From Nitrosopumilus sp. (GTDB lineage Archaea > Thermoproteota > Nitrososphaeria > Nitrososphaerales > Nitrosopumilaceae): a DNA stretch of 64,000 bases. The translations under genes were made by a program, and so were the position numbers. The notes under the pieces were generated by a model. It saw only the letters and a list, made by a program, of their open reading frames with translations, was not told the DNA's origin and ran no database searches. The stretch spans positions 960,001 to 1,024,000 of the forward strand of contig OY763927.2 of the NCBI GenBank assembly GCA_963667665.2, read 5' to 3'. This document shows, one piece after another, positions 13,760 through 30,919 of this stretch (position 1 is the first letter of the stretch; every line of letters begins with the position of its first letter).

Positions 13760-15118
13760 TTGTCTGCCTTAGATAAGGCATTGAATCATTCAAAGAACAT
13801 AGGAATTGATGAATGCGAGATAGTTGTTGTAAAAAAAAAGATCATTACAGTAAGAATTACTGATTCAGAAATTGCTGAAATTAAGCAAAACTTTGATGAA
13901 AATTATGGAATTAGATTAATTCATGAAAAAAAAATTATATCAATTCAAACAACTAACCAAGAAGAGATAGAAAAGGTAATTGATAGTACATTTGAGACAT
14001 CAACGAAACTTAAATCAAGAGATTTTTGGAAGGGGCTACCATCAGATACAACACACAAGCAACTAGAAGGAACATTTGATGGGAAATTGGAGAAGATTTC
14101 CGGCACAAATGTAATGGATATCGCACAAAATATGATAAATTCAGCAAATAATGACATGGTAAATACGATTACAGGATCACTAAACATTGTTTCAGAGAAT
14201 TTTGAGTTAGCAAATTCTAATGGGTTGCATCTAAATGACAAGGCAACATACATTTCAGGAATAATTAATGCGGAATCAGAATCAGGAGTTATACCAGTAT
14301 CAGGTATTGGATACGCAAGTTGTAGAACATTATCAAATTTTTCTGCAGAACAAGTTGGAGATGATGCAAAAGTTATGTGTATTGAATCAATAAACCCACA
14401 AAAAATTGATTCAGACAAGTATTCTATAATTTTCGAACCATATTCAGTAGGAGAACTATTGGCATTTGTTGTTGCAGCAAATTTTAGTTTTAAAACATTT
14501 TCAGAAAAGAAAAGTTGTTTTTCAAATAATTTTGAAGAAAAAATAGCAACTGAACAACTGAGTTTAGTTGATGATCCACACATACCAGAAGGAATTGGAA
14601 CAAAATATGTAGATGATGAAGGAGTAGAAACTCAAAAAAGAAGTTTAATAGAAAAAGGAATTTTCAAGAATACTTTTTCAAATCTATTTGATAGTTACAA
14701 AGAAAGAAAACAATCTTCAGGTAATGCATCAAGAGCAGGTTCACCTATGGGAAGAAGTTCCGAGCCTATACCAATTTCAGCACCACATAATCTCAAAATA
14801 AATCCAGGGAATATTTCTCAAGAAGATATGATCAAAGATACAAAACATGGATTGTTAGTTGGAAGATTATGGTACACATATGCAGTAAATCCAATTAAAG
14901 GAGATTTTTCATGTACAGCAAGAAGTGGTATAAGAATTATTGAAAAGGGTAAAATAAAGGGACCTGGAAGATCAGTAAGAATAATTCACAATCTTCCAAC
15001 TATGATAAAAAATATTTCAGAAATTGGAAACAATCAAAAAAATGTAATTCAATGGGCATCACTTCCATCCATTGTACCATCAATTAAGGCTAAAAATATT
15101 ATGGTAAATTCTATCTAA
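13760..15118 (+). CDS. TldD/PmbA family protein (PmbA/TldE-like)
   Basis: DDPH...DDEGV, SSGNA, NPIKGDFS and IEKGKI motifs; no HExxH. Confidence 0.88.
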   Translation: MSALDKALNHSKNIGIDECEIVVVKKKIITVRITDSEIAEIKQNFDENYGIRLIHEKKIISIQTTNQEEIEKVIDSTFETSTKLKSRDFWKGLPSDTTHKQLEGTFDGKLEKISGTNVMDIAQNMINSANNDMVNTITGSLNIVSENFELANSNGLHLNDKATYISGIINAESESGVIPVSGIGYASCRTLSNFSAEQVGDDAKVMCIESINPQKIDSDKYSIIFEPYSVGELLAFVVAANFSFKTFSEKKSCFSNNFEEKIATEQLSLVDDPHIPEGIGTKYVDDEGVETQKRSLIEKGIFKNTFSNLFDSYKERKQSSGNASRAGSPMGRSSEPIPISAPHNLKINPGNISQEDMIKDTKHGLLVGRLWYTYAVNPIKGDFSCTARSGIRIIEKGKIKGPGRSVRIIHNLPTMIKNISEIGNNQKNVIQWASLPSIVPSIKAKNIMVNSI

Positions 15119-15138: not shown

Positions 15139-16074
15139 TTACTTGAAAAACGTGACTACAAGATATGCAACATAACCTATAGCCAAACAAACACCCATGG
15201 CTCTATTGATAATTCCAGTTTTCAGAGCAATCAGTAATGAAATGCTAAAGATAATCATTATTGCATAATCAACATAAACATCAGCGCCAATCATTACACC
15301 TCCAAGTGCAGCACCAATTCCCATTATCATCAAGATGTTGTAGATATTACTTCCAATAATGGTTCCAATACCAATATCTGCATGACCCTTTCTAATTGCA
15401 ATTATTGATGTTATTAATTCGGGAAGAGAAGTTCCAATTGCAATTACAGTTAACCCAATAATTTTTTCTGATAATCCAAACTCGTGTGCTAAAATTACAG
15501 CATTATCAACTGTAAGAATTGCGCCAACATACAAAAGTGCAATACCTATTCCAATTAATCCTACAGATTTTAGATATATGTTAGTTTTTTCTTTTTCAGT
15601 GTTCTCTTTGTTTTCCTCTCTATGTTTCATTGCATCTTTGAATGTATAAAATGCAAATACCCCCAATCCGCCAAGTAATAATATTCCATCATAATTAGAA
15701 AGTTCACCATCAACTGAGAGTAAAACAAGTAAAAGAGAAACGCCCAACATGATTGGAATTTCTTTTCGCAAAATAGATTTTCTTACTGCTAAAGGAATAA
15801 GCATTGCAGACACACCAATCACCATTCCAATGTTTGCAATATTACTTCCAATAACATTTCCCAGAATAATTGCACTGTGTTCACCTGCTGCAGCAACACT
15901 AGCAGCAAGTTCTGGAGTTGAAGTACCATACGCTACAATAGTCATCCCTATTACAAGATTACTTATTCTGAATTTTTTTGCAATGTTTACACCGCCGTTT
16001 ACTAACCAATTTCCGCCAAAACATAACATTACTAATCCAACTACAGTTAAAATTGCACTTACTGCTACTTCCAC
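15139..16074 (-). CDS. Ca2+/Na+ antiporter (CaCA, YrbG-like)
   Basis: Two alpha repeats GTSTPEL...GSNIAN and GTSLPEL...GSNIYN. Confidence 0.93.
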   Translation of the reverse strand: MEVAVSAILTVVGLVMLCFGGNWLVNGGVNIAKKFRISNLVIGMTIVAYGTSTPELAASVAAAGEHSAIILGNVIGSNIANIGMVIGVSAMLIPLAVRKSILRKEIPIMLGVSLLLVLLSVDGELSNYDGILLLGGLGVFAFYTFKDAMKHREENKENTEKEKTNIYLKSVGLIGIGIALLYVGAILTVDNAVILAHEFGLSEKIIGLTVIAIGTSLPELITSIIAIRKGHADIGIGTIIGSNIYNILMIMGIGAALGGVMIGADVYVDYAIMIIFSISLLIALKTGIINRAMGVCLAIGYVAYLVVTFFK

Positions 16075-16227
16075 AAAGAACGTTCAGATTTTCGTGGTTT
16101 AAAGGAGATTATTCACTATAATTTCACAATTCTAACAATTGCAATAAACCTGAATTTATCAATCTAGATCTAGGTGTAAAAAAACCAGCTCGGTAGATCA
16201 ACAAAGCTAAAGTTAAAGATTAATAAA

Positions 16228-16246
16228 GTAATATACCGTACCATAC
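16228..16246. promoter_or_regulatory. Tandem GTA-N3-TAC operator pair between TATA-like box and wHTH start
   Basis: GTAATATAC (16228-16236) and GTACCATAC (16238-16246), 10 bp apart, ending 3 nt before the ATG. Confidence 0.6.
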
Positions 16247-16249
16247 AGT

Positions 16250-16597
16250 ATGATGCGAACAAGACTAACATATGTACCACTAGAAGTAGCTGACCAATTC
16301 GAAGATTTCATCATAGAAAGAGATGTGCAAATACTTGATGCAGTAAAAGCAAGAACACGAGATTACAGTACACTATCACTGTTGAAGCTGTTGTATCAGC
16401 TTAGAGGAAATCCTATGACATTCTCAAATTTGTATTCAAAGTCAAAGATTAGAATGAAGAAATCATTTTTGAATTATCTACATCTGTGTGTGAATTACAA
16501 CTTTATCAAAAAAGAGCCAGTAGGGCCAAATGTAATCTATACAATTACAGACAAAGGACGAACTATGTTGAATCTCTTTATCAACAAAGAGTTGTAA
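16250..16597 (+). CDS. Winged helix-turn-helix transcription regulator
   Basis: MTFSNLYSKS...SFLNYLHLCVNYNFI...YTITDKG wing motif. Confidence 0.8.
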   Translation: MMRTRLTYVPLEVADQFEDFIIERDVQILDAVKARTRDYSTLSLLKLLYQLRGNPMTFSNLYSKSKIRMKKSFLNYLHLCVNYNFIKKEPVGPNVIYTITDKGRTMLNLFINKEL

Positions 16598-16646
16598 AAG
16601 AACATAAAGATAATTTTAGAAAATATATTTTTTTATTTTTAGCGAC

Positions 16647-18341
16647 TTAATAGTAATGATGCATTTGTCTTTGTTCTAATCCTTCTTGCTCAAAGTGATT
16701 GTGAGACTTTCCACCATCATGATGAGCATGAACTACTCCATCAATATGACAATGGGTATTGTCAATCAAATTCTTCATGAACACATCATCTACATTCAGT
16801 ATCATGTTAGCAACTTCAACTGCAGTTTTGAAAACTTGTTGTTTAACAACTACTGTTTCAATAATGTCAGATGATGATACGTCAGATATCTTTCTAGTGT
16901 TAGAATTTATTCCATACCATCTTATCTTGCCATTCAATGTTGCAAATTTTGCTCGAAATTGTGTTAATGTATCTAACACATCCATTCCCACATTCTGTGC
17001 TAATGTTAATGGTATTTCATCTACAGCATCTGCAAATCTTTGTATTACAATTTGTTCCTTACCTTCAACAGTTACAGATTGCTTTCTAATTTTTTGTGCA
17101 ACTATTCCTTCAACAGAGCCAGCACCATATACAATGAATGGATGTTCAATGAAATTTCTTAATACATAAAATGCATTCAAAGCATTTCTGTGAAATTCAT
17201 CTAGAAATCGTTTTGAGTTGGCCCTCAATAACAAAGTTACAGATTTTGGATTGTTTCCACCTTCCACAAAAACCATTTTATCTCCACCTACAGTCTTCTC
17301 ATACACTCTTTTTGCAAAACCTAATTCATCGTTAGATATTTTCTCAATATTTTTACAGATCTCAGCACCAGTCGCCTTTTCTAGCCACCATAAATCATTG
17401 TACTTTACTCGCCGCATTGAGATAATACCATGTTTTGCAAGAGCTTCTTGAACAAACTCATTAACTCCTTTCCTAGATATTACGACATTAGCCCCCGAAT
17501 CTACAATATTTTTTACAAGTGCAAGTAAGTCTGTGTTTTCTTGGTTAAGGAATTGGTTCATCTGTTTGGGAGAGTCTATTTCTATCTCTGCCTCCGTTCT
17601 TGTTCTCATTGGTTCTAATGATTCATTAATTAACAGAATCTTGGCATTGTGAATAGTTCTAGGCATTGCAGAACTATCTATTGTTTTATCAATCACAGTA
17701 CCTTTGATCAATTGTATTTCTGTAGCATTTCCTATTTTTTCTTCAATTTTTATGTCATCAATATCTATCTGCCCTCTTTCCAAGTTGGCAATATCACATA
17801 CAGCCTCAATGATAATATCTACAATCTTTGTATTTTCTTCTTGTAAATCAAAAATTGCTTTTCCCTCTAAACATGTAGTTAGTAATTGTCGCATTATTTT
17901 TCTGTCTCTTCTGTTTGATTTTATCTTAATTTCATCCAATGTTTCTAAAGCACAATCTAAACTTTGATTATAACCGCGAGTAATTGTAGCAACAGGAATT
18001 CCAATTTTTAATAATTCTTCAGCATGTTTGAGTAAACTACCAATCAAAACAGCTGTAGATGTTGTACCATCTCCAACATGAGTATCAACGGTGTTAATAG
18101 ATTCTACAACTGATTTAGCTGCAGGATGATCAACATCAACTTTTCTCAAAAACGCACCACCGTGACTTGTAATTGTATCTTCTCCAAGTATGTCAATGTA
18201 TATTTTTTCCATACCGCGCGGACCAAGAGATGTTTTAACTATTTCCGTAACAAGTTTACCTGAAATTAAATTATACATTTGTGATTCTTGTAATCCAATA
18301 CGTGAAATATCTTGATCAAGTAAACCAGGGTATTTCATCAC
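16647..18341 (-). CDS. Divergent group II chaperonin (thermosome-like) with His-rich C-terminal tail
   Basis: SLGPRGMEK, GDGTTST, RRVK and IPLTLAQNVG motifs; tail HCHIDGVVHAHHDGGKSHNH...HHYY; GGAGG SD at 18348-18352. Confidence 0.88.
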   Translation of the reverse strand: MMKYPGLLDQDISRIGLQESQMYNLISGKLVTEIVKTSLGPRGMEKIYIDILGEDTITSHGGAFLRKVDVDHPAAKSVVESINTVDTHVGDGTTSTAVLIGSLLKHAEELLKIGIPVATITRGYNQSLDCALETLDEIKIKSNRRDRKIMRQLLTTCLEGKAIFDLQEENTKIVDIIIEAVCDIANLERGQIDIDDIKIEEKIGNATEIQLIKGTVIDKTIDSSAMPRTIHNAKILLINESLEPMRTRTEAEIEIDSPKQMNQFLNQENTDLLALVKNIVDSGANVVISRKGVNEFVQEALAKHGIISMRRVKYNDLWWLEKATGAEICKNIEKISNDELGFAKRVYEKTVGGDKMVFVEGGNNPKSVTLLLRANSKRFLDEFHRNALNAFYVLRNFIEHPFIVYGAGSVEGIVAQKIRKQSVTVEGKEQIVIQRFADAVDEIPLTLAQNVGMDVLDTLTQFRAKFATLNGKIRWYGINSNTRKISDVSSSDIIETVVVKQQVFKTAVEVANMILNVDDVFMKNLIDNTHCHIDGVVHAHHDGGKSHNHFEQEGLEQRQMHHYY

Positions 18342-18449
18342 TTTTAGCCTCCTTTTAGATATTAAAACATGCTTACTGACGAATTTAATTTACCAAAAAT
18401 AAAGAACACAAAATAAAACGAACAGTAAATTGTTTATTATTTGATTTTA

Positions 18450-20054
18450 CTACGTTACTTCCTTACTTGTAGCATCATCAGGTCCGGGTGTGTCAGGTCC
18501 TGGTGTATTAGAGCCAGGTCCACCTGCACTTGTCGCTGAAGTATCATTTTGGAAGTGTAACAAATCTTCTCCGGCAATTACATCTTCTTCAGGTGGTACA
18601 TAGTCGCGTACATCGTGTCTTGCTTTTCCTGGATACTTTCCTTGGGTTGCTTGTGCTACTATAAAGAACAAAGCAAATGCAATGATAGGAGGTATCATTG
18701 TATCCAATCCTGCCCATTCTTCTGGCATTGTAAAGAAGAATGCAAATCGAATTAGTGAACCAACAACAAGAGCTACAACGGCTGCGGGCATGTTTGCCTT
18801 TTTCCAGAACAAACCTAATGTGAGAGGAGCAAATGCTCCGGCAAAAACTATGTCAAATGCTAAGATGAGATAAATTCCAGGAGCTGGAACAAAGTAACCG
18901 ATAGCAGTTCCAACTATCATCATTGGAATAATTACAACACGAGTAACTTTGAGTAATTGACTATCACTCCAATTTGGTTTGCCCATCCATCGTCTTCGGA
19001 TAATTCTCTGCATCATATTTCTTGAAATTACACTGGAAATTGCCAATAGACCACCACTGGCAGTAGACATTGATGCTCCAACTACGCCCATTAGTATTGC
19101 TGCACCAATTGCAAATGGCAATACTTCTGTAGATAGTAAAGGTAAAGCCATGTTTGGATCAATATCTATTGGAAGATAGAAGAATGCTACAATTCCTAAC
19201 ATGCTAGTTGGAATTACTGTAAACATTGTAAGTGCGCCACCCATCAATGCACCTCTTTGTGCTGTTTTCGGGTTCTTAGCTGAAAATACTCGCTCCATAA
19301 AGTCAAGCGCAACGATATCTCCCAATCCTAGCGCAAGAATAGCACCCCAATTAATCAGCGCGCCATTAGCCATATCATACAATCCCGATAGATCCAAAAA
19401 CGCTGGTGGAGCGTTGTTGTAAATGACATCCCATGGAGTATCTGCAAAGCCACCATAGAAGAAAAGGAAACCAGCCCAAAATGCACCAATTGCAAGATAA
19501 ACTTGGAACAGATTTGTATAAGCCGATGCAAATAATCCTCCAGCAACTGTATAGATTACCACAACTATAGCTGAAATTGCAATACCATAGAAATAATTTA
19601 TACCAAACACAACTTCCAAAATAAATCCACTAGCTGCTAAATTGCCTGCAACAAGAATTAGAAAACTAACAATCATAAGAATGCCGGAAAGACCTTCTGC
19701 TCCATTTCCAAATCTTCTGAAATAGAAATCAGGTAATGTGATCATTGACATTTTGTTTAATGGTTTAGCATAGAATGCAGCTGTTACAAACAGACATAAT
19801 CCTAAACCAATTGGAATAACTGCTCCTGCCCAAAATCCAAATTCAAATACAAGAGCAACATTGCCTAACGATGAATTTCCATCAACTGCTTGAGCTGCAA
19901 GCATAGTTCCAACCATAAACAAAGGCAAACTTTTTCCTGCAATGATCAGTCGCTTACCACTATTTTTGACTAGTTTACCTGCAAATACCCCTACTGCAAG
20001 TGTAATGATAATAAATACGGCAACAGCGATGCCAAACCCATCCATCTCCACCAT
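18450..20054 (-). CDS. Sodium:solute symporter (SSS/SLC5, choline-transporter-like clade)
   Basis: About 13 TM helices; AGKSLP, FYAKPL..ITLPDF, YTVAGGL, ERVFSAK, ASMSTAS and LGLFWKKAN motifs. Confidence 0.88.
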   Translation of the reverse strand: MVEMDGFGIAVAVFIIITLAVGVFAGKLVKNSGKRLIIAGKSLPLFMVGTMLAAQAVDGNSSLGNVALVFEFGFWAGAVIPIGLGLCLFVTAAFYAKPLNKMSMITLPDFYFRRFGNGAEGLSGILMIVSFLILVAGNLAASGFILEVVFGINYFYGIAISAIVVVIYTVAGGLFASAYTNLFQVYLAIGAFWAGFLFFYGGFADTPWDVIYNNAPPAFLDLSGLYDMANGALINWGAILALGLGDIVALDFMERVFSAKNPKTAQRGALMGGALTMFTVIPTSMLGIVAFFYLPIDIDPNMALPLLSTEVLPFAIGAAILMGVVGASMSTASGGLLAISSVISRNMMQRIIRRRWMGKPNWSDSQLLKVTRVVIIPMMIVGTAIGYFVPAPGIYLILAFDIVFAGAFAPLTLGLFWKKANMPAAVVALVVGSLIRFAFFFTMPEEWAGLDTMIPPIIAFALFFIVAQATQGKYPGKARHDVRDYVPPEEDVIAGEDLLHFQNDTSATSAGGPGSNTPGPDTPGPDDATSKEVT

Positions 20055-20099
20055 GTGTTTATTGATTTGATCAAGCTATATTAGCTTTGAATTTTGCAA

Positions 20100-20140
20100 G
20101 TATAGTACGTTTTATGAGGAAAAAATTATTCGTATAATAC
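20100..20140. promoter_or_regulatory. Two GTA-N3-TAC sites upstream of the symporter
   Basis: GTATAGTAC 20100-20108 (centre 50 bp from the ATG) and GTATAATAC 20132-20140. Confidence 0.65.
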
Positions 20141-20317
20141 ATTTTATGAAATAATTTCTATAAATTTCATGATTTTAAAGAAAACTTTTACGATCATAGT
20201 ATGAAATTCATAATTTGTAATTTACAAAAATAATTTATTTTTAAGATAATTTTTCGATCAAACATTCATTACGATTTTAATTCAAAATTTTATTAATTCA
20301 ACAATCTTGCACATATC

Positions 20318-20488
20318 GTGGATAAACAATATGCCATTGCAGTAATTCTGATTATCTTAGGACTGGGGTTAAACCAATCTGGCTCAGCTAACCCATTCTA
20401 TAGTGGTCTTGGAATAGGAGTCATAGCAATGGGAACATTTTGGGTAGTAATTAGATTAATTAAAGAACTCAAGAAAAAACAATCTTAA
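20318..20488 (+). CDS. 56-aa two-helix membrane protein (not in ORF track)
   Basis: GTG start; MDKQYAIAVILIILGLGL...GLGIGVIAMGTFWVVIRLIKELKKKQS*. Confidence 0.6.
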   Translation: MDKQYAIAVILIILGLGLNQSGSANPFYSGLGIGVIAMGTFWVVIRLIKELKKKQS

Positions 20489-20536
20489 TTTTCAAAATTC
20501 ATAAAATAATATAAACACTAATTTAGAATATTTTGT

Positions 20537-21049
20537 GTGCCAGGAAAAGGATATTCTACATTTGGTATGAAACCTGTAATTACAACTAGATTACAAGAAG
20601 CAACAGACAAGAGTTATCCTGGAATGTTTCTTCCCAGTACATTAATTATCATAATGAATGAGATCAAGAGAGGATATTATTCAGTAGAATCACATAAAAT
20701 AAAATTAGATTTGTCTGGTAGATACAATACCATAACTATAAGATCAGATGTTAAAGAATGGTCAGTAGAAAATCATGAAAAACTTGGAAAAGATTATGAA
20801 GAAAGATACAATGTAAAATGCTTTACAAAATTTGTGAGTTATTTTATAGTTAACATGTTAGAATCAAAAAGTGATGCTCAAAACCATTCTATTAGTCTAA
20901 AGGAATTAGATTTCAGTTGGCTTCAAGATAAATATAAAAAACAAAAAAAGAGTCCTGAAGGAATTTCTAGTTTTGAACGATTTGCAGATAGTTACATTAA
21001 TGATTTACTGGTAAAGATTAAAGCGGCAAAAGAAATCTTAACATTATAA
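20537..21049 (+). CDS. Hypothetical protein with internal repeats, possibly tandem ribbon-helix-helix
   Basis: Three segments starting YSTFGMK / YNTITIR / NHSISLK, each followed by helices. Confidence 0.6.
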   Translation: MPGKGYSTFGMKPVITTRLQEATDKSYPGMFLPSTLIIIMNEIKRGYYSVESHKIKLDLSGRYNTITIRSDVKEWSVENHEKLGKDYEERYNVKCFTKFVSYFIVNMLESKSDAQNHSISLKELDFSWLQDKYKKQKKSPEGISSFERFADSYINDLLVKIKAAKEILTL

Positions 21050-21082
21050 ATTTTATTTATAACAATTTAAATTTATAAAAAA

Positions 21083-21334
21083 TTAAAGTGGTGTCATAGT
21101 ATCAATTAATCGTGCATTAACAACATGACAATCTTTTTCTTGTATTTCAAGGTCTACAGTATATTTCAAACCATCTAGCATGAAATTAACTTGAACATCC
21201 CAAGATACTCTAGGTCCTTTTTCAGGAACTTGGAATGTTTCATTCACTCTAAAGTCACTTACGTCACCATATAATGCATTGATTATTCTACGAGACTCTC
21301 TATCGATGTCTTCTGATGTGCTAACAGCCTGCAT
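21083..21334 (-). CDS. Small hypothetical protein (possibly PepSY-like fold)
   Basis: 83-aa ORF; helix followed by beta strands WDVQV..YTVDLEI..VVN. Confidence 0.65.
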   Translation of the reverse strand: MQAVSTSEDIDRESRRIINALYGDVSDFRVNETFQVPEKGPRVSWDVQVNFMLDGLKYTVDLEIQEKDCHVVNARLIDTMTPL

Positions 21335-21395
21335 AACTAAACTATCAAAGAATGAATATAAAAATATTCTAATTAATTTTTCCTAGTAACAGTCA

Positions 21396-22652
21396 TCATA
21401 ATTTTGTTAGTCTTTTTAAAAATGATTCTTTATTCATTTTGTCCAACTTTTCTTGAACTTTAAATCGATGAAAAATTGCAGTTTGATTTGTAGGTTCAAG
21501 TTCTAGTGCTTTGTTGTAACATTTTAGAGACTCTTCATATTTTTTTAATAATAAAAGTAATTTTCCTTTATAGCTTATTGCATAGACGTAATTAGGATTG
21601 ATTTTTAGTGCTTTTTCACAATATTCAAGCGCCTCATCATATTTTTTTGAGTGTTCTAGAAACCACACCATAGTGCATAACGCCAGTACATTTCTTGGTT
21701 CAATCTCCAAAGCACATTCAAAATAGAATCTTGCTTTACCAAATTTTTTCAACTGAAACAAAGATGTGCCTTTACTGTAAAGTGCCTTAACATTATCAGA
21801 GTCATATTCTAAAATTTTATCGAAACACTCTATGGCTTTTTTATATAGTCGTGTTCTATCCAAGACTATTCCTTTATTGAATTGAGCATCAGTACATTTA
21901 GGATCAATTTTTAGGGCGTCATCATAAAAAACAAAAATCTCTTTGTTTGAAAATCCTGCTAAATCAAGAGTCCATCCCTTAGCCACAAGAGCTTTAGTAT
22001 TTTTCTTATCTATCTCCAGAGCTTTTGTATAGAATTTTATTGCTTCTTCATGTTTTCCTTTCTTTGTACGCTTCTGTCCTTTTTCATATAGAATGTCTGA
22101 TTGTCTAGAATCTTCATCAATAGCTTTTTGTAAGAATAGCATGGACTCTGAACTTTTTGCTAATCTTCCCAGAATCAAACTTTTGGCGTAAAGAGCAGCC
22201 GAGTTTTTTGGATTATTCAATAAAACTTGATCAATTATTGTTATAGCCTCATCATTACGCTCTAATTTACTTAAACATAATCCCATAGATGTTAATGAAT
22301 CAGAATATTGTGAATCAATTTCAAGAGATTTTTTGAAAGAAGATATTGCTTCTTCGTATTTTTCTATTTTTTCAAGTGCAAGACCTTTGTTGTATAAAGC
22401 ATCAAGACTTTTGGGATCTATAGATAAAATTTTATCAAAACAAATTATAGCATTTTGAAAATCTTCCAATTTGTATAATGTCCTGCCTTTATGAAGTTGA
22501 GCTACAATGTTTTCAGGTTCAAGTGAAATAGCCTTGTTAAATTTTAAAACAGCTTTTTTAAATTGATTGTAATAAACTGCGGTTAATCCTTGATTTAAAA
22601 AATACCATGCATTTTTTGAATTTTGTAAAATCATATTGGTATTGTCACCCAA
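21396..22652 (-). CDS. Tetratricopeptide repeat protein
   Basis: About 11 34-aa repeats of KG...A...F/YDKAL.IDP. Confidence 0.9.
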   Translation of the reverse strand: MGDNTNMILQNSKNAWYFLNQGLTAVYYNQFKKAVLKFNKAISLEPENIVAQLHKGRTLYKLEDFQNAIICFDKILSIDPKSLDALYNKGLALEKIEKYEEAISSFKKSLEIDSQYSDSLTSMGLCLSKLERNDEAITIIDQVLLNNPKNSAALYAKSLILGRLAKSSESMLFLQKAIDEDSRQSDILYEKGQKRTKKGKHEEAIKFYTKALEIDKKNTKALVAKGWTLDLAGFSNKEIFVFYDDALKIDPKCTDAQFNKGIVLDRTRLYKKAIECFDKILEYDSDNVKALYSKGTSLFQLKKFGKARFYFECALEIEPRNVLALCTMVWFLEHSKKYDEALEYCEKALKINPNYVYAISYKGKLLLLLKKYEESLKCYNKALELEPTNQTAIFHRFKVQEKLDKMNKESFLKRLTKL

Positions 22653-22674
22653 ATGTTATGTTTATAGTTAAAAC

Positions 22675-22747
22675 GTACATTACACATAATTGATTTTTTT
22701 AGAAAATGATGATATTTAATAATTAAAATACAATATACGTACTTTAC
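22675..22747. promoter_or_regulatory. Two GTA-N3-TAC sites upstream of the ureohydrolase
   Basis: GTACATTAC 22675-22683 and GTACTTTAC 22739-22747 (centre 50 bp from the ATG); TTTAATTA box at 22756-22763. Confidence 0.65.
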
Positions 22748-22792
22748 TTGAAATCTTTAATTATCAAAGTTGCACATAGAATTTGATTTAAA

Positions 22793-23908
22793 ATGGGCAT
22801 GGAATTTTATGGTGATGATTTTCAAGGTGCAGATGTTGCGCCATTTGTAGGAATTAATACATTTTTACATCTTCCTTGGGTAAAGACACACAAAGAATTA
22901 CTTGAAGCAAAACCAGACGTTGCAATTATTGGAGAGCCATTTGACTTTGGTACTACTATCCGCCCCGGAGCAAGATATGGGCCAAGAGCAATTAGAGCTG
23001 CATCTACAATTCCATCACCACCTTTTGAACGATTCAACATTGAAACGGGTGCAGACCCATTTGGAACTTTTCGAACAGTAGATTATGGAGACGTCATAGT
23101 TTCACCAGGGGATGTTATAGAATCACACAAGAGGATGACTCTAAAAGTTAAGGAAGTGTTAGAGGCAGATGGTATTCCTGTAATGCTTGGAGGAGATCAC
23201 TCAATTACTTATGCAAACGTTAGAGCATTTCAGAAAAAATACAAAAACATAGGCATGATTCATTTTGACACACACGCTGATTGTGCACCACAAGGACTAA
23301 CGGGTTTCAAGTATGATCATGGAGCACATATTAGAAGAATAATGGAGATGGGTTGTCTTAAAGGAAAGAACTACTCGCTTGTAGGTCCAAGAGGATATTG
23401 GCCAGGACGTGATTTGTACAAATGGATGTCAGACCAAGATTTCCAATGGTTTACAATGCTTGATGTTGAAGAATTAGGAATTGATGTTATTGCAAAAGAA
23501 ATAGCTGATAGAGCAAATGATGGAACAGATGCAGTCTATCTTAGTTGGGATATTGATTCTTTTGATCCTGCTTATGCACCAGGTACGGGAGAACCAGAAC
23601 CAAACGGACTTACATCAAGAGAAGGCATTAGAATGATTCGTCTATTATCAAAATCATTTGATCCTGATAGATTTGCAATGGATTTGGTAGAAATTGCTCC
23701 AGCATATGATGTCAGTGATTCAAGTTCTTACAACGGAGGAATCACATCTGGATTAGGACAAAGATTAGTTATTGAACTATTGGCAGGATTATCATTAACA
23801 AAGAGAGGTTTGGAGGGAGGAGATCCTGTAAGACCAAAGGCATACATGGGTACTGGAAACACATACAGTTTTGGTAATCCAACATCTAAAATTCCAAAGA
23901 GAGATTAA
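22793..23908 (+). CDS. Ureohydrolase (agmatinase/arginase/guanidinase superfamily), substrate unknown
   Basis: RPGARYGP, GGDHS, DTHAD, SWDIDSFDP, PGTG and EIAP: all dimetal ligands present. Confidence 0.92.
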   Translation: MGMEFYGDDFQGADVAPFVGINTFLHLPWVKTHKELLEAKPDVAIIGEPFDFGTTIRPGARYGPRAIRAASTIPSPPFERFNIETGADPFGTFRTVDYGDVIVSPGDVIESHKRMTLKVKEVLEADGIPVMLGGDHSITYANVRAFQKKYKNIGMIHFDTHADCAPQGLTGFKYDHGAHIRRIMEMGCLKGKNYSLVGPRGYWPGRDLYKWMSDQDFQWFTMLDVEELGIDVIAKEIADRANDGTDAVYLSWDIDSFDPAYAPGTGEPEPNGLTSREGIRMIRLLSKSFDPDRFAMDLVEIAPAYDVSDSSSYNGGITSGLGQRLVIELLAGLSLTKRGLEGGDPVRPKAYMGTGNTYSFGNPTSKIPKRD

Positions 23909-24303
23909 TGAAAATTGAAGTAGTGGTACAGGGAGATCCGGATATCAAGCCATTTACCAAGATATTTTATTATGAAAAATCTGATGAAACAATTTTCTTT
24001 GAATCCACACAATTAATCAAAAATCACCTATCAAACAATATGCGATTAAACATAAACGAGACACTAGGATTGTTTGTAGCTTATGTCATAACTTCGTTAA
24101 ATGAACGTAAAACAATCAACGAAATACAAAAACACATACCAGATATGCTTTTACCACATCAAGTGATGATTGGGGTTCCTGAAAGTTTGAGAAAACTAAC
24201 TTTTACAATTACAACCAAAGATATTGATAAAGAACAAATATTCATTACAACACCCATTCAAATTGTTCAATATTCTCTTGATGGACAGAAACAAACAGCA
24301 TAG
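23908..24303 (+). CDS. Divergent urease gamma-subunit (UreA)-like protein
   Basis: RLNINET...KTINEI...LLPHQVMIGVPESL aligns by eye with UreA KLNHPEA...RSVPEL...[14 protein letters not shown]; TAATG overlap with the ureohydrolase. Confidence 0.7.
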   Translation: MKIEVVVQGDPDIKPFTKIFYYEKSDETIFFESTQLIKNHLSNNMRLNINETLGLFVAYVITSLNERKTINEIQKHIPDMLLPHQVMIGVPESLRKLTFTITTKDIDKEQIFITTPIQIVQYSLDGQKQTA

Positions 24304-24317
24304 GAGTAATGGAATAA

Positions 24318-25076
24318 TTGATTGAAACAATAATGGGAATGTTACAAGCCAACAACCCTTTTTTAATTATAATTGCTGGTTTGATGATTGGATTATTGCA
24401 TGCTTTTGAGCCTGATCATCTTAGTGCAGTTTCCACTCAACTATTAAAAAACAACAATAATTCAAAGAGTTCAAAAAAACGAGACTTGCAAAATCTTACC
24501 ATTATCTCTTCTTTAAGAGGAGCACTTTGGGGAATGGGACATACATCAAGTATTATTTTAATCGGACTATTGATTGCAGGTTTATCATTAAACATACCTG
24601 ATGATTTTTTTATTAGTGCAGAAGTGCTTGTTGGTTTAATGTTGATTACTTTAGCAATTTTTACATTTACAAACAAAAGTATCTTTAAACAAAAACATGT
24701 TCATCCTCACACACATTCAGACGGAATTTCTCACACACATTCTCATGAACATAATGAAAATCACAAACATGGTCACAAAGCATACCTAATTGGTTGTGTT
24801 CACGGTATTGCAGGTAGTGGTAGTCTTGTTGCATTATTTGCATCTACAATGAATGGTTTTGATATGATGATTTATTTTCTAATTTTATTTGGCATAGGCA
24901 GTATAATTGGTATGACTGTTGCTAGCGGCGTTATGGGATTACCATTTATTTTATTATCAAAAGTTAATTCTATTACTAAATATCTAAGATACACAATAGC
25001 TAGTATAACTTTCATAATTGGTCTTAATATTATAATTACAATTGGATTAGATAATAAATTATTTTCTTTAAACTAA
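24318..25076 (+). CDS. UreH/NicO-like nickel transporter or Ni-handling membrane protein
   Basis: GLLHAFEPDH, WGMGH, a His-rich loop and GCVHGIAGS motifs. Confidence 0.85.
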   Translation: MIETIMGMLQANNPFLIIIAGLMIGLLHAFEPDHLSAVSTQLLKNNNNSKSSKKRDLQNLTIISSLRGALWGMGHTSSIILIGLLIAGLSLNIPDDFFISAEVLVGLMLITLAIFTFTNKSIFKQKHVHPHTHSDGISHTHSHEHNENHKHGHKAYLIGCVHGIAGSGSLVALFASTMNGFDMMIYFLILFGIGSIIGMTVASGVMGLPFILLSKVNSITKYLRYTIASITFIIGLNIIITIGLDNKLFSLN

Positions 25077-25095
25077 ACATATAGTTTGAAAACTA

Positions 25096-26808
25096 TTAAA
25101 ACAAATTGTATAGTCTTGACATAGAAACTTTGTCGGCAGGATCTGTTGTTGCAATTTTCCCATCAACTTTAACTTCATATGTTTCAGGATTTACCTCAAT
25201 GTTTGGAGTAAGATCATTATACAACATGTCTTTCTTTCCAATAGAACGGCAATTTTTCACAGGAACCAATTTCTTTTTTGAATTGATTTCAGATTCAATA
25301 CCCTTGTCTAGTGCCAGTTGAGATGTGAATGTTACAGAAGTGGAATATTTTGTTTGGCCAAGGGCTCCAAACATAGGACGATACATGACAGGTTCAGTAG
25401 TAGGAATTGATGCATTAGGATCACCCATAAGGGAATATGCAATAAAACCGCCTTTTATGATCATTTTTGGTTTGACTCCAAAAAATGCAGGGGACCAAAT
25501 TACAATATCAGCTAATCGTCCAGGCTGCAATGAGCCCACATAATCTGAAACTCCATGAGTTATGGCAGGATTTATTGTAATTTTAGCAAGATAACGCTTC
25601 ACTCTGAAATTATCATTTTGAGCATTGTCTTCAGGTAATGCACCAGCCATCTTTTTCATTTTATCAGCAGTCTGCCAATTTCTGGTTGTAACTTCTCCTA
25701 CTCTTCCCATAGCTTGACTATCAGAAGACATCATACTCAACACACCAATATCATGTAGTACATCCTCTGCAGCAATAGTCTCACCCCTAATTCTAGACAT
25801 TGCAAAGGAAACATCTTCAGGTACTGATGAGTTTAGATGATGGCAAACCATCATCATGTCAAGATGTTCTGCTAGTGTGTTTACTGTAAATGGTCTTGTA
25901 GGATTTGTAGATGAAGGAAGTATATTTTCTTCACCTGCAATTTTCATAATATCTGGAGCATGTCCACCTCCAGCACCTTCAGTATGATAAGTATGAATTG
26001 TTCTTCCTGCAATTGCTTCAATTGTGTCATCAACAAATCCACATTCATTTAGAGTATCAGTATGGATTGCAACTTGGGTATCAGTTTTGTCTGCAACCCT
26101 CAAAGCAGAATCAATCGTAGCAGGAGTTGTACCCCAATCTTCATGTAGTTTTAGTCCACAAGCTCCTGCTTCAATTTGTTCAAGTAATGCAGATTCACGA
26201 GAGTCATTTCCTTTTGCAAGAAATCCAAAGTTTAGTGGTAATTCATCAACAGACTCAATCATTCTATGAATATTCCATTTACCAGGAGTGCATGTTGTTG
26301 CATTTGTTCCATCAGCTGGACCAGTTCCACCGCCAATCATCGTGGTGGTACCATTACATATTGCATGTATTGCTTGTTGAGGAGAAATAAAATGAATATG
26401 TGAATCAATTGTTCCAGGAGTACAAATGGTATGCTCGCCGGCAATTATCTCAGTGTTAGAAGATATTACCATATCAATATCATCCATGATGTCAGGATTA
26501 CCAGCATTTCCTATTCCAACAATTTTTCCATCTTTTACTCCAATGTCTGCTTTGATAATTCCCAAAATAGGATCCATTACAATTGCGTTAGTAATTACAA
26601 GATCAAGTGATTCTGCTCTAGATACGCCACTTGCTTGCCCCTGCCCATCTCTTATGCTCTTTCCTCCTCCAAATACAGCCTCATCACCATACGTAGTCAA
26701 GTCTTTTTCAATTTCAATAATCAAATCAGTATCTGCAAGACGGATTCGGTCACCCACAGTAGGACCAAACAAATCAACATGTGTTTTTCTTGGAATATCT
26801 AGAGTCAT
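25096..26808 (-). CDS. ureC: Urease alpha subunit
   Basis: [37 protein letters not shown] and SDSQAMGR motifs. Confidence 0.99.
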
Positions 26809-27182
26809 TGGGTCATTCCTTTGAATCCTTTTTCAGTAGCTTTTTTGAATGCCTCTTCTTGCTTTTCTTCTAGACTTCCATTCACCAGTCCACTAAATCC
26901 ATAAACAATTTTTTTTCCTCCAAATTCCGTTAGTTCAATTTCTTTTGTATCTCCGGGTTCAAATCTAACTGATGTGCCGGCAGGAATATTGAGATGGTAT
27001 CCGTAAGATTGTTTCCTTTGAAATTCAAGAGCTTTGTTTACTTCAAAAAAGTGTGTATGTGATCCTACCTGTATTGGTCTATCTCCAGTATTTCTAACAC
27101 TAACAGATGTAGTTGATTTTCCTACGTTAGCAATGATAGGTTCATTAGATGAGAAGTATTCGCCAGGAATCATAGTTATCAC
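26805..27182 (-). CDS. ureB: Urease beta subunit
   Basis: [18 protein letters not shown] and [12 protein letters not shown] motifs. Confidence 0.98.
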
Positions 27183-27481
27183 ACAATAGGGTCATGAATT
27201 GTTACAAGTTTAGTTCCATCTTCAAATGTTGCCTCCACTTGAATAGATGTAATTAATTCTACAACTCCAGGTAAAACATCATCTTTTGATAGAACATTTT
27301 TTCCAGAGCTCATAAGTTCCGGAACAGATCTTCCATCTCTTGCACCTTCTAAGATATGATCAGCAAGAATAGATACAGCTTCAGGATGATTAAGTTTCAA
27401 TCCACGATTTTTTCTTCTTCGAGCAAGTTCTGATGTAACAAAAACATTTAGTTTTTCTAATTCTCTAGGAGTAAGCATCAT
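27179..27481 (-). CDS. ureA: Urease gamma subunit
   Basis: [19 protein letters not shown] and [17 protein letters not shown] motifs; start taken at ATG 27481. Confidence 0.98.
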
Positions 27482-27566
27482 TGAATTGGATAGTGTATCA
27501 GAGTATTTAATCATTAAAACGGTAAAATCTAACAAAGTATAACTCTGTCAAAAAACAAAGTTACTT

Positions 27567-28052
27567 GTGTTAGAAGTTAATTCCCCTATAGGAAATATTT
27601 TTCATGATAAAGAATTTGATAATTTGAAAAATGAGAATTTTGAAAGACTCAAGATTTCCCGAATTGAATTAGAAAAAAGAATTTTGAGAAGAAAGACAGA
27701 TCGAGGAACAGATATTGGTTTGAATTTAGACCCAGGAGTGAAACTTTGCAATGGAGATATTATCAAAAATGGAGATACAAAAATTGTTGTGGAGCAATTA
27801 CCAGAAAAAATAATTACAGTTAAACTAAAAAATGAAAAGATGACAGATGTAATGGTGCTGTTAGGGCACATCATTGGAAACAGACACAGACCGATATCCA
27901 TTCAAGGAGATGAGATTTCATTTCCAATTCAAGCAGATTCAGAAAAGGAAATATTTACAAAATTATTTCAGAGCATTATCAACCATATCAACATTACAGT
28001 AGAAGAACAGATATTTTCCCCTCAATTAGGTGCAGATGTACATGAACATTGA
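27567..28052 (+). CDS. ureE: Urease accessory protein UreE
   Basis: RRKTDRGTDIG and GHIIGNRH motifs; C-terminal HEH. Confidence 0.92.
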   Translation: MLEVNSPIGNIFHDKEFDNLKNENFERLKISRIELEKRILRRKTDRGTDIGLNLDPGVKLCNGDIIKNGDTKIVVEQLPEKIITVKLKNEKMTDVMVLLGHIIGNRHRPISIQGDEISFPIQADSEKEIFTKLFQSIINHINITVEEQIFSPQLGADVHEH

Positions 28053-28743
28053 CGAGATAGAACAAGAGTTAGGGGTAATGCAGTTATCTGACTCATTTTT
28101 TCCTACAGGTATTTTTGCTACTTCAAATGGATTAGAATTTCTTTTCACAGAAAAAAAAATTCAAGATATGGCAGACTTGATAGAAATTATCAGAATTAAC
28201 ATTACTCAGCAGATAGGACCATCAGATTGTGTTGCACTTGCAAATGCATTTGATAGTGCAAACAAATGTGATTTTGAAAAAGTGATTGAAGTAGACAATA
28301 TTGCTTTTGCCACTAAATCAATTAAAGAAATACGCAATTCATCAGTAAGATCGGGGGTTCAATTAGTAAAATGTGTTTCAGAATTTATAACAGATGATGA
28401 AATTTTAAATCAATACAAAAACAACATAACAAAAAACAATGCACATGGGATATTTCCTGTGGCATTTGCAATTTGTTGTAATGCATTAAAAATTAAAAAA
28501 GAAAAAAGCATGACGATGTTATTGTATGGTTTTACTGTTGGGGTTGTAGGTGCAGCATTACGATTAGGATTAATTCAACATTTTGAAGGTCAAAAAATAA
28601 TTCACAATATAAAACCAATCATCAGTCAAACTATCAAAGAATATTCTAATGAATCACTTTTTGAAATGTGGCAATTTGCACCCCAAATAGATATTGTTCA
28701 AATGTCACATGAAAAAATGGATTCAAAAATGTTTATTACATAA
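28042..28743 (+). CDS. ureF: Urease accessory protein UreF
   Basis: [16 protein letters not shown] and C-terminal HE...MFIT motifs. Confidence 0.92.
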
Positions 28744-28760
28744 AAATTAGATTTTTCATC

Positions 28761-29417
28761 ATGACTCACATCGCAAGAATCGGTATTGGTGGACCAGTTG
28801 GTTCTGGTAAAAGCATGTTAATTGAACGCTTGGTGCCAATGTTGGCTGAAAAGGGATACAGTGTAAGTATAATCTCAAATGATGTGATTTCAAAAGAAGA
28901 TGCTGACAGAATGAGGGATAATTTAGCTACGAAAAAAGGACTACTTCCAGAAAATTTAGTGATTGGTCTTGCAACTGGCGGTTGTCCACATACTGCAATC
29001 AGAGAAGATCCTTCCATGAATCTTGCAGTAATAGAAGAAATAGAATCAGAGCATCCTGATCTTGACCTTATAATTATTGAAAGTGGAGGAGATAACATTA
29101 CAACTACATTCAGTCCCATTCTTGCAGATTATTCTATTTACATAGTTGATGTTGCAGGAGGAGACAAGTATCCAAGAAAAGGCGGATTAGGAATTGAGAG
29201 TTGTGATCTTTTAGTAATTAACAAGATAGATCTTGCCATGATGGTTGGAGCAGACCTTGATATCATGAAAAGAGATGCAGAAAAGATTAGAAAAGAAAAA
29301 CCATTTGAATTTATCAATTGTAAAACAGATGAAGGTATAATGAAGATAACTGAACACATTATTCATGATGTCTTGTTTGATTCTGCACCAAAATCAGAAC
29401 TTACACAAAAGGTGTGA
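28761..29417 (+). CDS. ureG: Urease accessory GTPase UreG
   Basis: [26 protein letters not shown] and NKID motifs. Confidence 0.97.
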
Positions 29418-29420
29418 TTA

Positions 29421-30347
29421 TTGAATAAACTAGAATACTACACACCAAATGACATACCAAAAGAAATTCAGACATATGATTCAGAAATAAAACAATTAGG
29501 AGTTGGAAAATCAGGAAAAGTAGGCATTCTTGATTTGGAACTTCAAAAAAACAGTAATGGTAAAACAGTTGTTACAAAACAATTTTCTCAAGTTCCGTTA
29601 CAATTTCAACGAGCATTATATCCTGAAAACTCACTTCCTGAAATGGCATATCTTTATGTTATTTCTCCATCAGGAGGAGTTCTACAAGGGGATAGATACA
29701 GAATGGATGTGTCATTAAAAAATAAGGCCATCGCTCATATGACAACTCAAGGTGCCACTAGCATCTACAGTATGGATTCAAATTTTGCATCACAAATTGT
29801 AAACATCACACTTGATGAGAATTGTTATTTAGAATACATCCCTGATCAAATAATACCAAACAAGAATTCCAGGTATTATCAAAAAGTTAATCTGAATATT
29901 CACGATAATGCAACTTTGGTATATTCAGAAATTTTAACTCCTGGAAGAGTAGCCATGGATGAATCTTTTGAATATGATATTTGTTACCTAAGAACACACT
30001 GTAAGAACCAAGACAAAAAAATAAGGTTTTTAGAAAATACAAAAATTGAGCCAAAAAAACAAAAATTAAAAAATTTTGGAATATTAGGCAAATACAACAC
30101 AGTTGGAACAGTTTACATCTTGACTAGAAAAGAAAATGTAATTGAACTAGAAAATTCAATAAATGAAAGAATCAAAAAGACAGATGCAATGTCTATTGGA
30201 ACATCCATTCTTCCAGATGAATCCGGAATAGTCATCAGAATTTTAGGAGATAAGACAGATAATATTTCTGATGTAATTTTCAAGATACTTGAAATTAGTA
30301 GAAAGAAAATTCTTGGTGCATCAATTAGTAAAATAAGAAAAAACTAG
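29421..30347 (+). CDS. ureD: Urease accessory protein UreD
   Basis: SPSGGVLQGD, TTQGAT, LEYIPD and PGRVA..E.F motifs. Confidence 0.93.
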   Translation: MNKLEYYTPNDIPKEIQTYDSEIKQLGVGKSGKVGILDLELQKNSNGKTVVTKQFSQVPLQFQRALYPENSLPEMAYLYVISPSGGVLQGDRYRMDVSLKNKAIAHMTTQGATSIYSMDSNFASQIVNITLDENCYLEYIPDQIIPNKNSRYYQKVNLNIHDNATLVYSEILTPGRVAMDESFEYDICYLRTHCKNQDKKIRFLENTKIEPKKQKLKNFGILGKYNTVGTVYILTRKENVIELENSINERIKKTDAMSIGTSILPDESGIVIRILGDKTDNISDVIFKILEISRKKILGASISKIRKN

Positions 30348-30378: not shown

Positions 30379-30594
30379 CTAGGGAAGAAGTGAAATATTC
30401 ATTTCTTCTTCTAATTCAGCGTTTTTATCAATCAACAGTTGATTTTGATCATCAATTTCAAACTGATTTTCTGATTCATCTGAAGAATCAAATCCAAAAT
30501 AAAAAATCAAATTAACTACAATAAACATTATTAGAATTAGAACTAATTTGGTTTTAGTTGATAGTGCTCTATTAGAGTCGGGTCTATTAGCCAT
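30379..30594 (-). CDS. Small single-TM hypothetical protein
   Basis: Hydrophobic helix followed by an acidic tail. Confidence 0.55.
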   Translation of the reverse strand: MANRPDSNRALSTKTKLVLILIMFIVVNLIFYFGFDSSDESENQFEIDDQNQLLIDKNAELEEEMNISLLP

Positions 30595-30679: not shown

Positions 30680-30919
30680 ATGAAATTGAATGAAAACAAA
30701 ATAGAATGGTATGATGAAATTTTTGATTTTTTAAAGGACGAACACCCTGATTGGGAAAAATTGCTAGTAGATGAACAAGTCAAAATAAAAACAAATCAAC
30801 ATACAATAGAATTTTCTGTAATAGAGCAAGTTTTACAAAAATTTAATCTTAGAATTACTAATATTTCATATACAGACTATTATGGTATAATTTTTAGAAT
30901 TGAGAAATTAGAAAAATAA
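30680..30919 (+). CDS. Hypothetical protein
   Basis: 79-aa ORF with TTTAAAA box about 25 nt upstream. Confidence 0.6.
   Translation: MKLNENKIEWYDEIFDFLKDEHPDWEKLLVDEQVKIKTNQHTIEFSVIEQVLQKFNLRITNISYTDYYGIIFRIEKLEK

Follow-up and report, generated by a model that had tools for sequence, protein, structure and literature searches.

The 64-kb stretch of DNA studied here, called the window, comes from the archaeon Nitrosopumilus sp. (contig OY763927.2, positions 960,001 to 1,024,000). Its G+C content is about 33%, and the closest relatives of the proteins it encodes are named Nitrosopumilus or Nitrosarchaeum. The window holds a cluster of genes for a sodium:solute symporter, a small membrane protein, an unannotated 170-aa protein (U170), an 83-aa protein, a TPR protein, an arginase-family ureohydrolase, a urease-gamma-like protein and a DsbD_2-type membrane protein, with urease genes alongside (Table 1). 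The 9-bp palindrome GTA-N3-TAC, hereafter the box, recurs in the promoters of this cluster. It is very probably a real operator there, and the protein proposed here to read it is U170.

Copies of the box in the window

An initial annotation of this region reported six copies of GTANNNTAC, and all six are found exactly, at 16228, 16238, 20100, 20132, 22675 and 22739. Its pair spacings (10, 32 and 64 bp) are confirmed. The proximal symporter and ureohydrolase sites, read toward their genes, are the two 14-mers that it gave, ACGTACTATACTTG and ACGTACTTTACTTG. Each has its centre 50 nt ahead of the ATG and precedes a TATA-like box. In the whole window there are 15 copies, compared with 6.63 +/- 2.81 expected from 100 dinucleotide shuffles; the largest shuffle count is 14, and none of the 100 shuffles reaches 15. 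The chance rate assumed earlier, about one copy per 3 kb, overestimates the background. In the shuffles a copy arises about once per 9.7 kb, and the enrichment is therefore stronger than had been claimed.

These copies differ in how well they match orthologous sites. A symmetric position matrix was made from 100 distinct orthologous sites, with the window excluded, and on it those sites score 9.4-18.7 (median 14.3). Only four of the six copies (20100, 20132, 22675 and 22739) fit the conserved element beyond the GTA and TAC triplets, with scores of 13.9-15.9. No other copy in the window exceeds 10.7, the coding-region copies at 3683 (10.7) and 17400 (9.8) included. The two copies preceding a gene for a winged-helix protein are no better than these coding-region copies, and this gene does not stand as the third regulon target it had been taken to be. 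A seventh intergenic copy (20217-20225; matrix score 8.7) was missed earlier. In the 25 other symporter-U170 spacers compared, the corresponding position has no box, and the copy is probably due to chance.

Table 1. Genes and promoter features around the symporter-ureohydrolase cluster, in window coordinates. Matrix scores refer to the position matrix described in the text.
Feature	Position	Strand	Details	Matrix score	Loci with gene (of 79)
Na/Ca exchanger	15139-16074	-
Two GTA-N3-TAC copies	16228-16236, 16238-16246		4-22 nt upstream of winged-helix gene	9.6 and 3.8
115-aa winged-helix protein	16250-16597	+	Pfam DUF4364, HTH_45, all below cut-off		2
Thermosome subunit	16647-18341	-
Sodium:solute symporter, 534 aa	18450-20054	-	Pfam SSF, E 1.6e-27
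TATA-like element, symporter promoter	20076..20084	-	TAATATAG on minus strand
Symporter proximal box	20100..20108		Reads AACGTACTATACTTG toward gene; centre 50 nt upstream of ATG 20054	15.8
Symporter distal box	20132..20140		32 bp from proximal box	14.3
Small hydrophobic membrane ORF, ~56 aa	20319-20489	+	GTG start; between symporter and U170
U170, unannotated 170-aa protein	20537-21049	+			62
83-aa protein	21083-21334	-	Downstream of TPR gene
TPR protein	21396-22652 (longest ORF); 21396-22634 (preferred start)	-	Pfam TPR_1, E 1.6e-64		63
Divergent TPR operon box	22675..22683		Minus strand GTAATGTACG, then TTTTAACTATAAAC containing TPR TATA	13.9
Ureohydrolase operon box	22739..22747		ACGTACTTTAC-TTGAAAT-CTTTAATTA; centre 50 nt upstream of ATG 22793	15.9
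TATA-like element, ureohydrolase promoter	22755..22764	+	Conserved CTTTAATTA 7-8 nt after box
Arginase-family ureohydrolase	22793-23908	+	Pfam Arginase, E 1.4e-79		66
Urease-gamma-like protein	23908-24303	+	Pfam Urease_gamma, E 2.3e-6		53
DsbD_2-type membrane protein	24318-25076	+	Pfam DsbD_2, E 4e-4		61
ureCBA	25096-27535	-			29 (ureC)
ureEFGD	27567-30347	+

Conservation and promoter placement of the box

Orthologous loci were collected by a scan of species genomes anchored on the symporter, which lies between the three promoters. It gave 138 matched stretches, of which 117 encode a relative, and the best 80 were kept as 79 loci (L001 and so on). Symporter identity among them is 65-95%, and the DNA fetched reaches up to 10 kb to either side. 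Gene content was established by tblastn with the window proteins, and further families were defined by all-against-all clustering. The conserved unit consists of the symporter, the small open reading frame (ORF), U170, the 83-aa protein (family 5 of the clustering, in 62 loci), the TPR protein, the ureohydrolase, the gamma-like protein and the membrane protein, with urease beside it or not.

Of the 72 usable symporter starts, 57 have a perfect box with its centre 35-70 nt upstream, as do 58 of the 66 ureohydrolase starts. The background for the same distance is 21 of 1212 other ORFs in these loci. Over 1.38 Mb, intergenic DNA has 1.52 boxes per kb and coding DNA 0.22. Records from Nitrosopumilus, Nitrosarchaeum, Nitrosotenuis, Cenarchaeum and Nitrosopelagicus keep the box while its flanks diverge. 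In several sponge-type or Cenarchaeum-like records, the box and the TATA box form AT-rich islands within GC-rich spacers. Loci with such islands include L027-L029, L049, L051 and L052. Judged from these alignments, this is a clear phylogenetic footprint of the kind expected for an operator, with the site kept and its surroundings changed. The consensus is (C)GTA-YTW-TAC(G), where the full form is close to CGTA-YTW-TACG and either flank may be kept. This conservation bears out the initial proposal that the symporter and ureohydrolase promoters carry the box as a genuine cis element.

The symporter promoter carries a pair of boxes. Its proximal box lies exactly 50 nt upstream in 28 orthologous promoters and reads AAAAC-GTA-YTW-TAC-TTG toward the gene as a consensus. 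A second box (consensus AAAT-GTA-YTA-TAC-G toward the gene) is found 30-34 bp further upstream in 52 of the 57 box-bearing promoters. The two are 32 bp apart in 33 cases and 33 bp apart in 13 (46 of 52 together), and this is the only one of the pair spacings that is conserved. The gap from the end of the proximal box to the TATA box is 15 nt in 32 of the 57 promoters, where TATA boxes, here and elsewhere in this analysis, are assigned by consensus match only. The symporter transcript is probably leaderless, with its ATG about 22 nt after the TATA-like element. More broadly, TATA-to-start distances suggest leaderless or very short-leader transcripts.

At the ureohydrolase operon, the box lies 49 or 50 nt upstream in 43 orthologous promoters and has the consensus AC-GTA-(C/G)TT-TAC-TTRGAAT toward the gene. 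Its gap to the TATA box is 8 nt in 37 of 59 promoters (that of the window included) and 6-9 nt in 53 of them. The copy at 22675 had been read as a second ureohydrolase site. It is instead the box of the divergent TPR operon, abutting the TATA box of that gene on the other strand. In most of 41 divergent TPR-ureohydrolase regions, AAATC-GTAYATTAC adjoins TTTTTATAGTTAAAT, the TPR gene's TATA box, and a box occurs within 150 nt of the TPR gene in 44 of 62 cases. Two boxes are present in 25 of 40 TPR-ureohydrolase spacers. They are spaced 61-75 bp apart, and the 64 bp of the window is therefore incidental and unconstrained. The three promoters grouped in the initial annotation are thus replaced by another set, in which 22675 serves the TPR operon and the winged-helix sites fall outside the conserved element.

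The TPR box is centred 45 nt upstream of ATG 22634. This codon, rather than TTG 22652, is probably the true start of the gene, because alignments with orthologues start between residues 4 and 7, the latter a methionine. The TTG that opens the longest ORF falls within the gene's own promoter, and ATG 22634 fits the position of the TATA box.

In some genomes, a gene for a universal stress protein lies beside the cluster, and a box is found within 150 nt of it in 12 of 17 cases. Seven of these 12 share the ureohydrolase-type layout of a box, a 7-nt gap and a TATA box. At L017 (6711-7136) and L048 (4401-4826), a box, a TATA box and the apparent first codons of a ureohydrolase gene precede the stress-protein gene, which suggests that these upstream regions are a duplicated promoter fragment.

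Two further kinds of promoter in the locus are free of the box. It is absent from all 20 regions examined upstream of ureE, and the earlier view that urease is separately controlled is supported. U170 has a conserved TATA box of its own, AAAATAATATAARC, and no box is found in its promoter in the symporter-U170 spacers compared. Control by an RNA element was considered and set aside: the boxes lie upstream of TATA boxes, and Rfam returns only a match antisense to ureC. This match, to the 5' ureB small RNA family (26365-26655, plus strand), scores 51.1 bits against a gathering score of 40, and it may reflect merely the conservation of urease coding sequence.

Several genes of the cluster can be described further. 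The symporter is probably the DUR3-type transporter of these archaea, with urea as its presumed substrate, and no second symporter is found among the ORFs of at least 100 aa scanned between 8.9 and 37 kb. Coding sequence for the small membrane ORF (MDKQYA...IRLIKELKKK type) is visible in all 26 symporter-U170 spacers compared; its homologues make up family 18 of the clustering, which has 15 members at 60 aa or longer. This ORF has a TATA-like element of its own. The ureohydrolase, the diverged urease-gamma-like protein and the DsbD_2-type membrane protein are encoded in a three-gene operon (22793-25076, plus strand). Ureohydrolase identity is 75-99% across loci whose symporters share only 65-95%. 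Among DsbD_2 proteins of this type are UreH-like nickel permeases. Two small genes (30379-30594 and 30680-30919) that the window has beyond ureD directly follow the thermosome gene in L001-L005. This arrangement suggests that the whole block from thermosome to ureD (16647-30347) is inverted between the window and those loci.

U170 as a candidate box-binding protein

U170 is the sole cluster protein with a DNA-binding-type fold, in a comparison that uses predicted models of U170 and the 83-aa protein and family matches for the others, with the small membrane ORF outside it. An alignment of 54 orthologues reveals three beta-alpha-alpha-like repeats. In the AlphaFold model (pLDDT 84.7, pTM 0.65), a strand at residues 6-11 is followed by helices at 13-26 and 32-44, a second strand at 64-69 is followed by helices at 70-91 and 96-116, and the C-terminal repeat is helical. 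The two strands pair with each other, since they are the only ones in the model. Repeats 1 and 2 are thus predicted to form a single-chain ribbon-helix-helix module, with two strand-helix-helix units joined through their strands. Conservation is complete or almost complete at residues Y6, T8, G10, K12, Y63, T67, I68 and R69, in and next to the strands. By hhalign, repeats 2 and 3 are homologous (E 2e-6, probability 89%).

The best solved matches to this model are three chains of the F-plasmid relaxosome (9f0y E, F and G), each 104-120 residues long, with E values of 8e-3 to 0.15, probabilities of 0.94-1.0 and target TM-scores of 0.51-0.55. At E 8e-3 the probability is 1.0 and the target TM-score 0.53. 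DndE and the Ti-plasmid protein VirC2 (2rh3, E 0.6) are further matches. The nearest named Atlas clusters of U170 all belong to ribbon-helix-helix families (0.83-0.85) and serve as leads only. According to passages of PMC12117103, the relaxosome holds three copies of TraY. Each is a monomer with a complete ribbon-helix-helix dimer fold that occupies about 10 bp, or about 30 bp for the three together. The footprint of one molecule is comparable to the 9-11 bp of the box. TraY and VirC2 are the closest known systems to the U170 model in having two beta-alpha-alpha units in one chain. They differ from it in showing no detectable sequence similarity (12-14% identity in structural alignments), and U170 has a third repeat, belongs to an archaeal metabolic cluster rather than a conjugation system and presumably acts in promoter control rather than relaxosome assembly. 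Judging by known structures, a single-chain module spanning about one helical turn would suit a box of 9-11 bp better than would a dimer of winged-helix proteins.

In raw counts, both U170 and a box at either promoter are present in 60 loci, U170 only in two, the box only in seven and neither in six. Five of the seven box-only loci extend less than 1.6 kb toward the usual position of U170. The six loci with neither (L033-L036, L072 and L076) each retain at least one of the ureohydrolase, TPR and 83-aa genes, so that boxes and U170 go missing together. This co-occurrence is suggestive, not proof. U170, whose gene is inside the cluster, is more likely to be the reader than the winged-helix protein, and we consider the chances that it binds the box to be about even.

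A number of observations weigh against this assignment. U170 has no Pfam or NCBIfam match, whether searched whole or as three repeats (Pfam to E 10), and so none to curated ribbon-helix-helix families such as RHH_1, RHH_3, ParG or NikA-like, and a profile search of solved structures with the U170 alignment returns a single irrelevant match (E 0.46). None of the structural matches reaches E 0.001, the query-normalised TM-score is about 0.4, and the relaxosome chains are presumed to be TraY. Repeat 1 aligns in register with repeats 2 and 3 at a level that is not significant (E 0.04-0.09, probability about 1%). No ligand-binding domain that would account for the signal input is recognisable in U170. 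Many ribbon-helix-helix proteins are repressors, whereas the position of the boxes is of the activator type. On the symporter tree, the association between U170 and the box comes down to 3-4 independent contrasts with a median sign-test p of 1. L073 and L079 have U170 and no box in the symporter promoter, and L022 has boxes and no U170 within 10 kb. Finally, a regulator need not adjoin its targets, and it is possible that the winged-helix protein or a distant factor is the reader.

Some other proposals for the reader can be set aside. Because the cluster holds nickel-linked genes, U170 was also considered as a NikR-type nickel regulator; it has no NikR_C match, and its C-terminal region consists of a helical repeat that shares homology with repeat 2. 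The model of the 83-aa protein (pLDDT 80.3) has one helix and four strands, with monellin and designed curved sheets as its best matches (E about 0.02). This monellin/cystatin-like fold makes the 83-aa protein an unlikely DNA binder, and the protein also persists in loci that have lost the boxes. It is a likely member of the regulon. The TPR protein is a repeat scaffold and likewise persists in loci without boxes. An Lrp-type helix-turn-helix family with a cysteine-rich tail (family 39) has GTA-N3-TAC at three of five genes, but within a different palindrome. That palindrome, TTTACAA(A/T)TGTAAA, lies between the Lrp gene of this type and a divergent gene for a DsbD-like membrane protein in L017 (~17380-17437), L048 (~14971-15028), L071 (~871-928), L073 and L079, and it looks like a separate operator, possibly related to metals.

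Rival readers and the proposed regulon

In the initial annotation, the box was assigned to the 115-aa winged-helix protein, which would repress its own gene from sites between TATA box and start and would activate the symporter and ureohydrolase genes. This protein is of a regulator type, as its Atlas clusters carry the automatic name ArnR1-like winged helix (0.98-0.99); that name is its likeness to ArnR/ArnR1-type regulators, from which it differs in that its sub-cut-off Pfam matches include no ArnR1 domain family. The model is kept as a minor rival because two copies only 10 bp apart, both 4-22 nt upstream of the ATG, are somewhat unlikely by chance: a rough Poisson estimate at about 0.2 copies per kb gives ~1e-3 for a 175-bp spacer and ~0.05 over the spacers of the window. 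L045 and L069 keep both copies, and their three substitutions in this 19-bp stretch all fall in the N3 spacers, with GTA and TAC intact. This retention carries no weight, because the whole spacer between the Na/Ca exchanger and winged-helix genes (16075-16249) is nearly identical there; these loci differ from the window in about nine columns of the last 185 nt before the winged-helix ATG, and the symporter promoter differs much more.

Several lines of evidence make this assignment improbable. The only two loci with the winged-helix gene in the fetched DNA are near-identical relatives, and the gene occurs in one of the 38 loci with full 10-kb flanks, 23 of which have no urease filling the flank. 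As a caveat, in L001-L005 the gene could lie just beyond ureD and outside the fetched DNA, given the suggested inversion. The two sites score well below the 13.9-15.9 of the cluster boxes, and their spacer bases are atypical: a central C is found in none of the 100 orthologous sites, and an A at the first position in two. Autoregulation would predict sites in the protein's own promoter that match the operator consensus and are kept in diverged orthologues; the two copies there match it poorly, in a comparison that covered the two near-identical relatives. Homologues number at least 120, some named Nitrosarchaeum, and are 87-98% identical among the matches listed, which fits a core protein and not the regulator of a patchy cluster. 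Known structures also suggest that a 9-bp palindrome, its half-sites spaced by 6 bp, would be a short target for a winged-helix dimer. The reported motif and its separation from urease control hold as a conserved operator that leaves urease out, while the winged-helix promoter and regulator of the initial annotation lack support, the link between that protein and the box being unsupported.

A second alternative, which is unlikely yet deserves more weight than the winged-helix model, is that the box is read by a regulator encoded elsewhere, such as a nitrogen-status factor, with U170 in some other role, for example as a partner or as a nucleic-acid-binding accessory to the cluster. The tree-corrected association of U170 and box, which is not significant, would be understandable in this case, as would the boxes of L022, which has no U170 within 10 kb, and the U170 genes of L073 and L079, which have no symporter box. 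A distant regulator would also agree with the lack of a visible sensor domain in U170, and the box before stress-protein genes hints at a regulon wider than the cluster. However, the six loci that lose U170 and boxes together are harder to reconcile with it, and the best site outside the cluster in the 64-kb window scores 10.7 and is in coding sequence, which fits a local regulon. Far less probable is a reading in which one of the many TFB or TBP paralogues of these archaea recognises the box as an extended core-promoter element, with no separate regulator. Such an element might be expected where the box directly precedes the TFB recognition element (BRE) and TATA box with a 7-8 nt gap, as at the ureohydrolase, TPR and stress-protein promoters. 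But most symporter promoters have a 15-nt gap and another box 32-33 bp beyond the first, and the element is palindromic. In addition, the side with the flanking C/G points away from the TATA box in the ureohydrolase promoter, whereas in the TPR promoter it points to the TATA box.

The explanation that best accommodates these observations, in which we place about as much belief as doubt, is a local regulon with U170 as reader. The box would be the operator of a small set of Nitrosopumilaceae transcription units, just upstream of the BRE/TATA in each: the symporter gene, which has a pair of boxes, the ureohydrolase operon and the divergent operon of the TPR and 83-aa genes. In some genomes, the universal-stress-protein gene beside the cluster would join the regulon, and the urease operons would remain outside it. 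U170, made inside the cluster from its own box-less promoter, would set the two-stranded ribbon of its module into the major groove over one 9-11 bp box. Once bound, it would activate transcription by recruiting basal factors. The signal is probably the supply of nitrogen or substrate, and the TPR/83-aa pair, itself under control of the box, might provide the input. Binding, ligand and direction of control are inferred, and U170 stands as a candidate only.

The direction of control can be argued from where the boxes lie. Activation is slightly favoured over repression, because every box is upstream of its TATA box and the gap between the two varies among promoters; the second box of the symporter promoter points mildly the same way. 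At the assigned TATA boxes, the sites occupy the place of upstream activating sites, ahead of the BRE/TATA. The earlier suggestion of activator-type placement at the symporter and ureohydrolase genes thus stands for the boxes themselves, and the part that made the winged-helix protein the activator is unsupported. A common helical face for the ureohydrolase and symporter boxes relative to TATA was considered and rejected, since their gaps differ by about 7 bp, which is not a full helical turn.

The proposed arrangement has partial parallels among known regulators. MetJ, Arc, CopG and NikR are single-repeat homodimers, mostly repressors, with sites that overlap the promoter. They resemble the system described here in their compact symmetric operator units, which can be paired as at the symporter promoter, and in having the regulator gene beside its targets. 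They differ in that the boxes here are upstream of TATA and that U170 has no Pfam RHH_1 or NikR_C match. Ptr2 of Methanocaldococcus is an Lrp-family protein with longer sites, which are palindromic, sometimes paired and located just upstream of the BRE/TATA. All three promoters here have this layout, but no Lrp-type gene is conserved in the cluster, and activation would be by analogy.

In full-text literature searches, neither this motif nor any regulator of these genes was found described. The use of urea by marine ammonia-oxidising archaea shapes their niches, and transcription of dur3 and of ureC is taken as a key marker in parts of PMC12686405. By tying the symporter to a highly conserved arginase-family enzyme, the box raises the question of whether the module handles urea alone or also a guanidino compound. 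Guanidine degradation itself was rejected as a role for the cluster, as portions of PMC11410670 report that no genes for it were found in ammonia-oxidising archaea.

The box marks a boundary of co-control, with the symporter gene, the ureohydrolase operon and the TPR operon inside and urease outside. Its conservation across at least five genera offers a handle for gel shifts, reporter assays and the reading of metatranscriptomes, and U170 gives these experiments a named candidate regulator that can be tested. The fullest form of the proposal is more tentative than its parts. It holds that U170 represents an unannotated archaeal family with three ribbon-helix-helix-type repeats, which reads the box and activates a nitrogen-scavenging module in response to substrate or nitrogen supply. 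If it is true, this module would comprise a DUR3-type symporter, a ureohydrolase with its urease-gamma-like partner and putative nickel permease, and a TPR/monellin-like pair. The box and U170 would then be the first defined operator-regulator pair for the use of organic nitrogen in marine ammonia-oxidising archaea.

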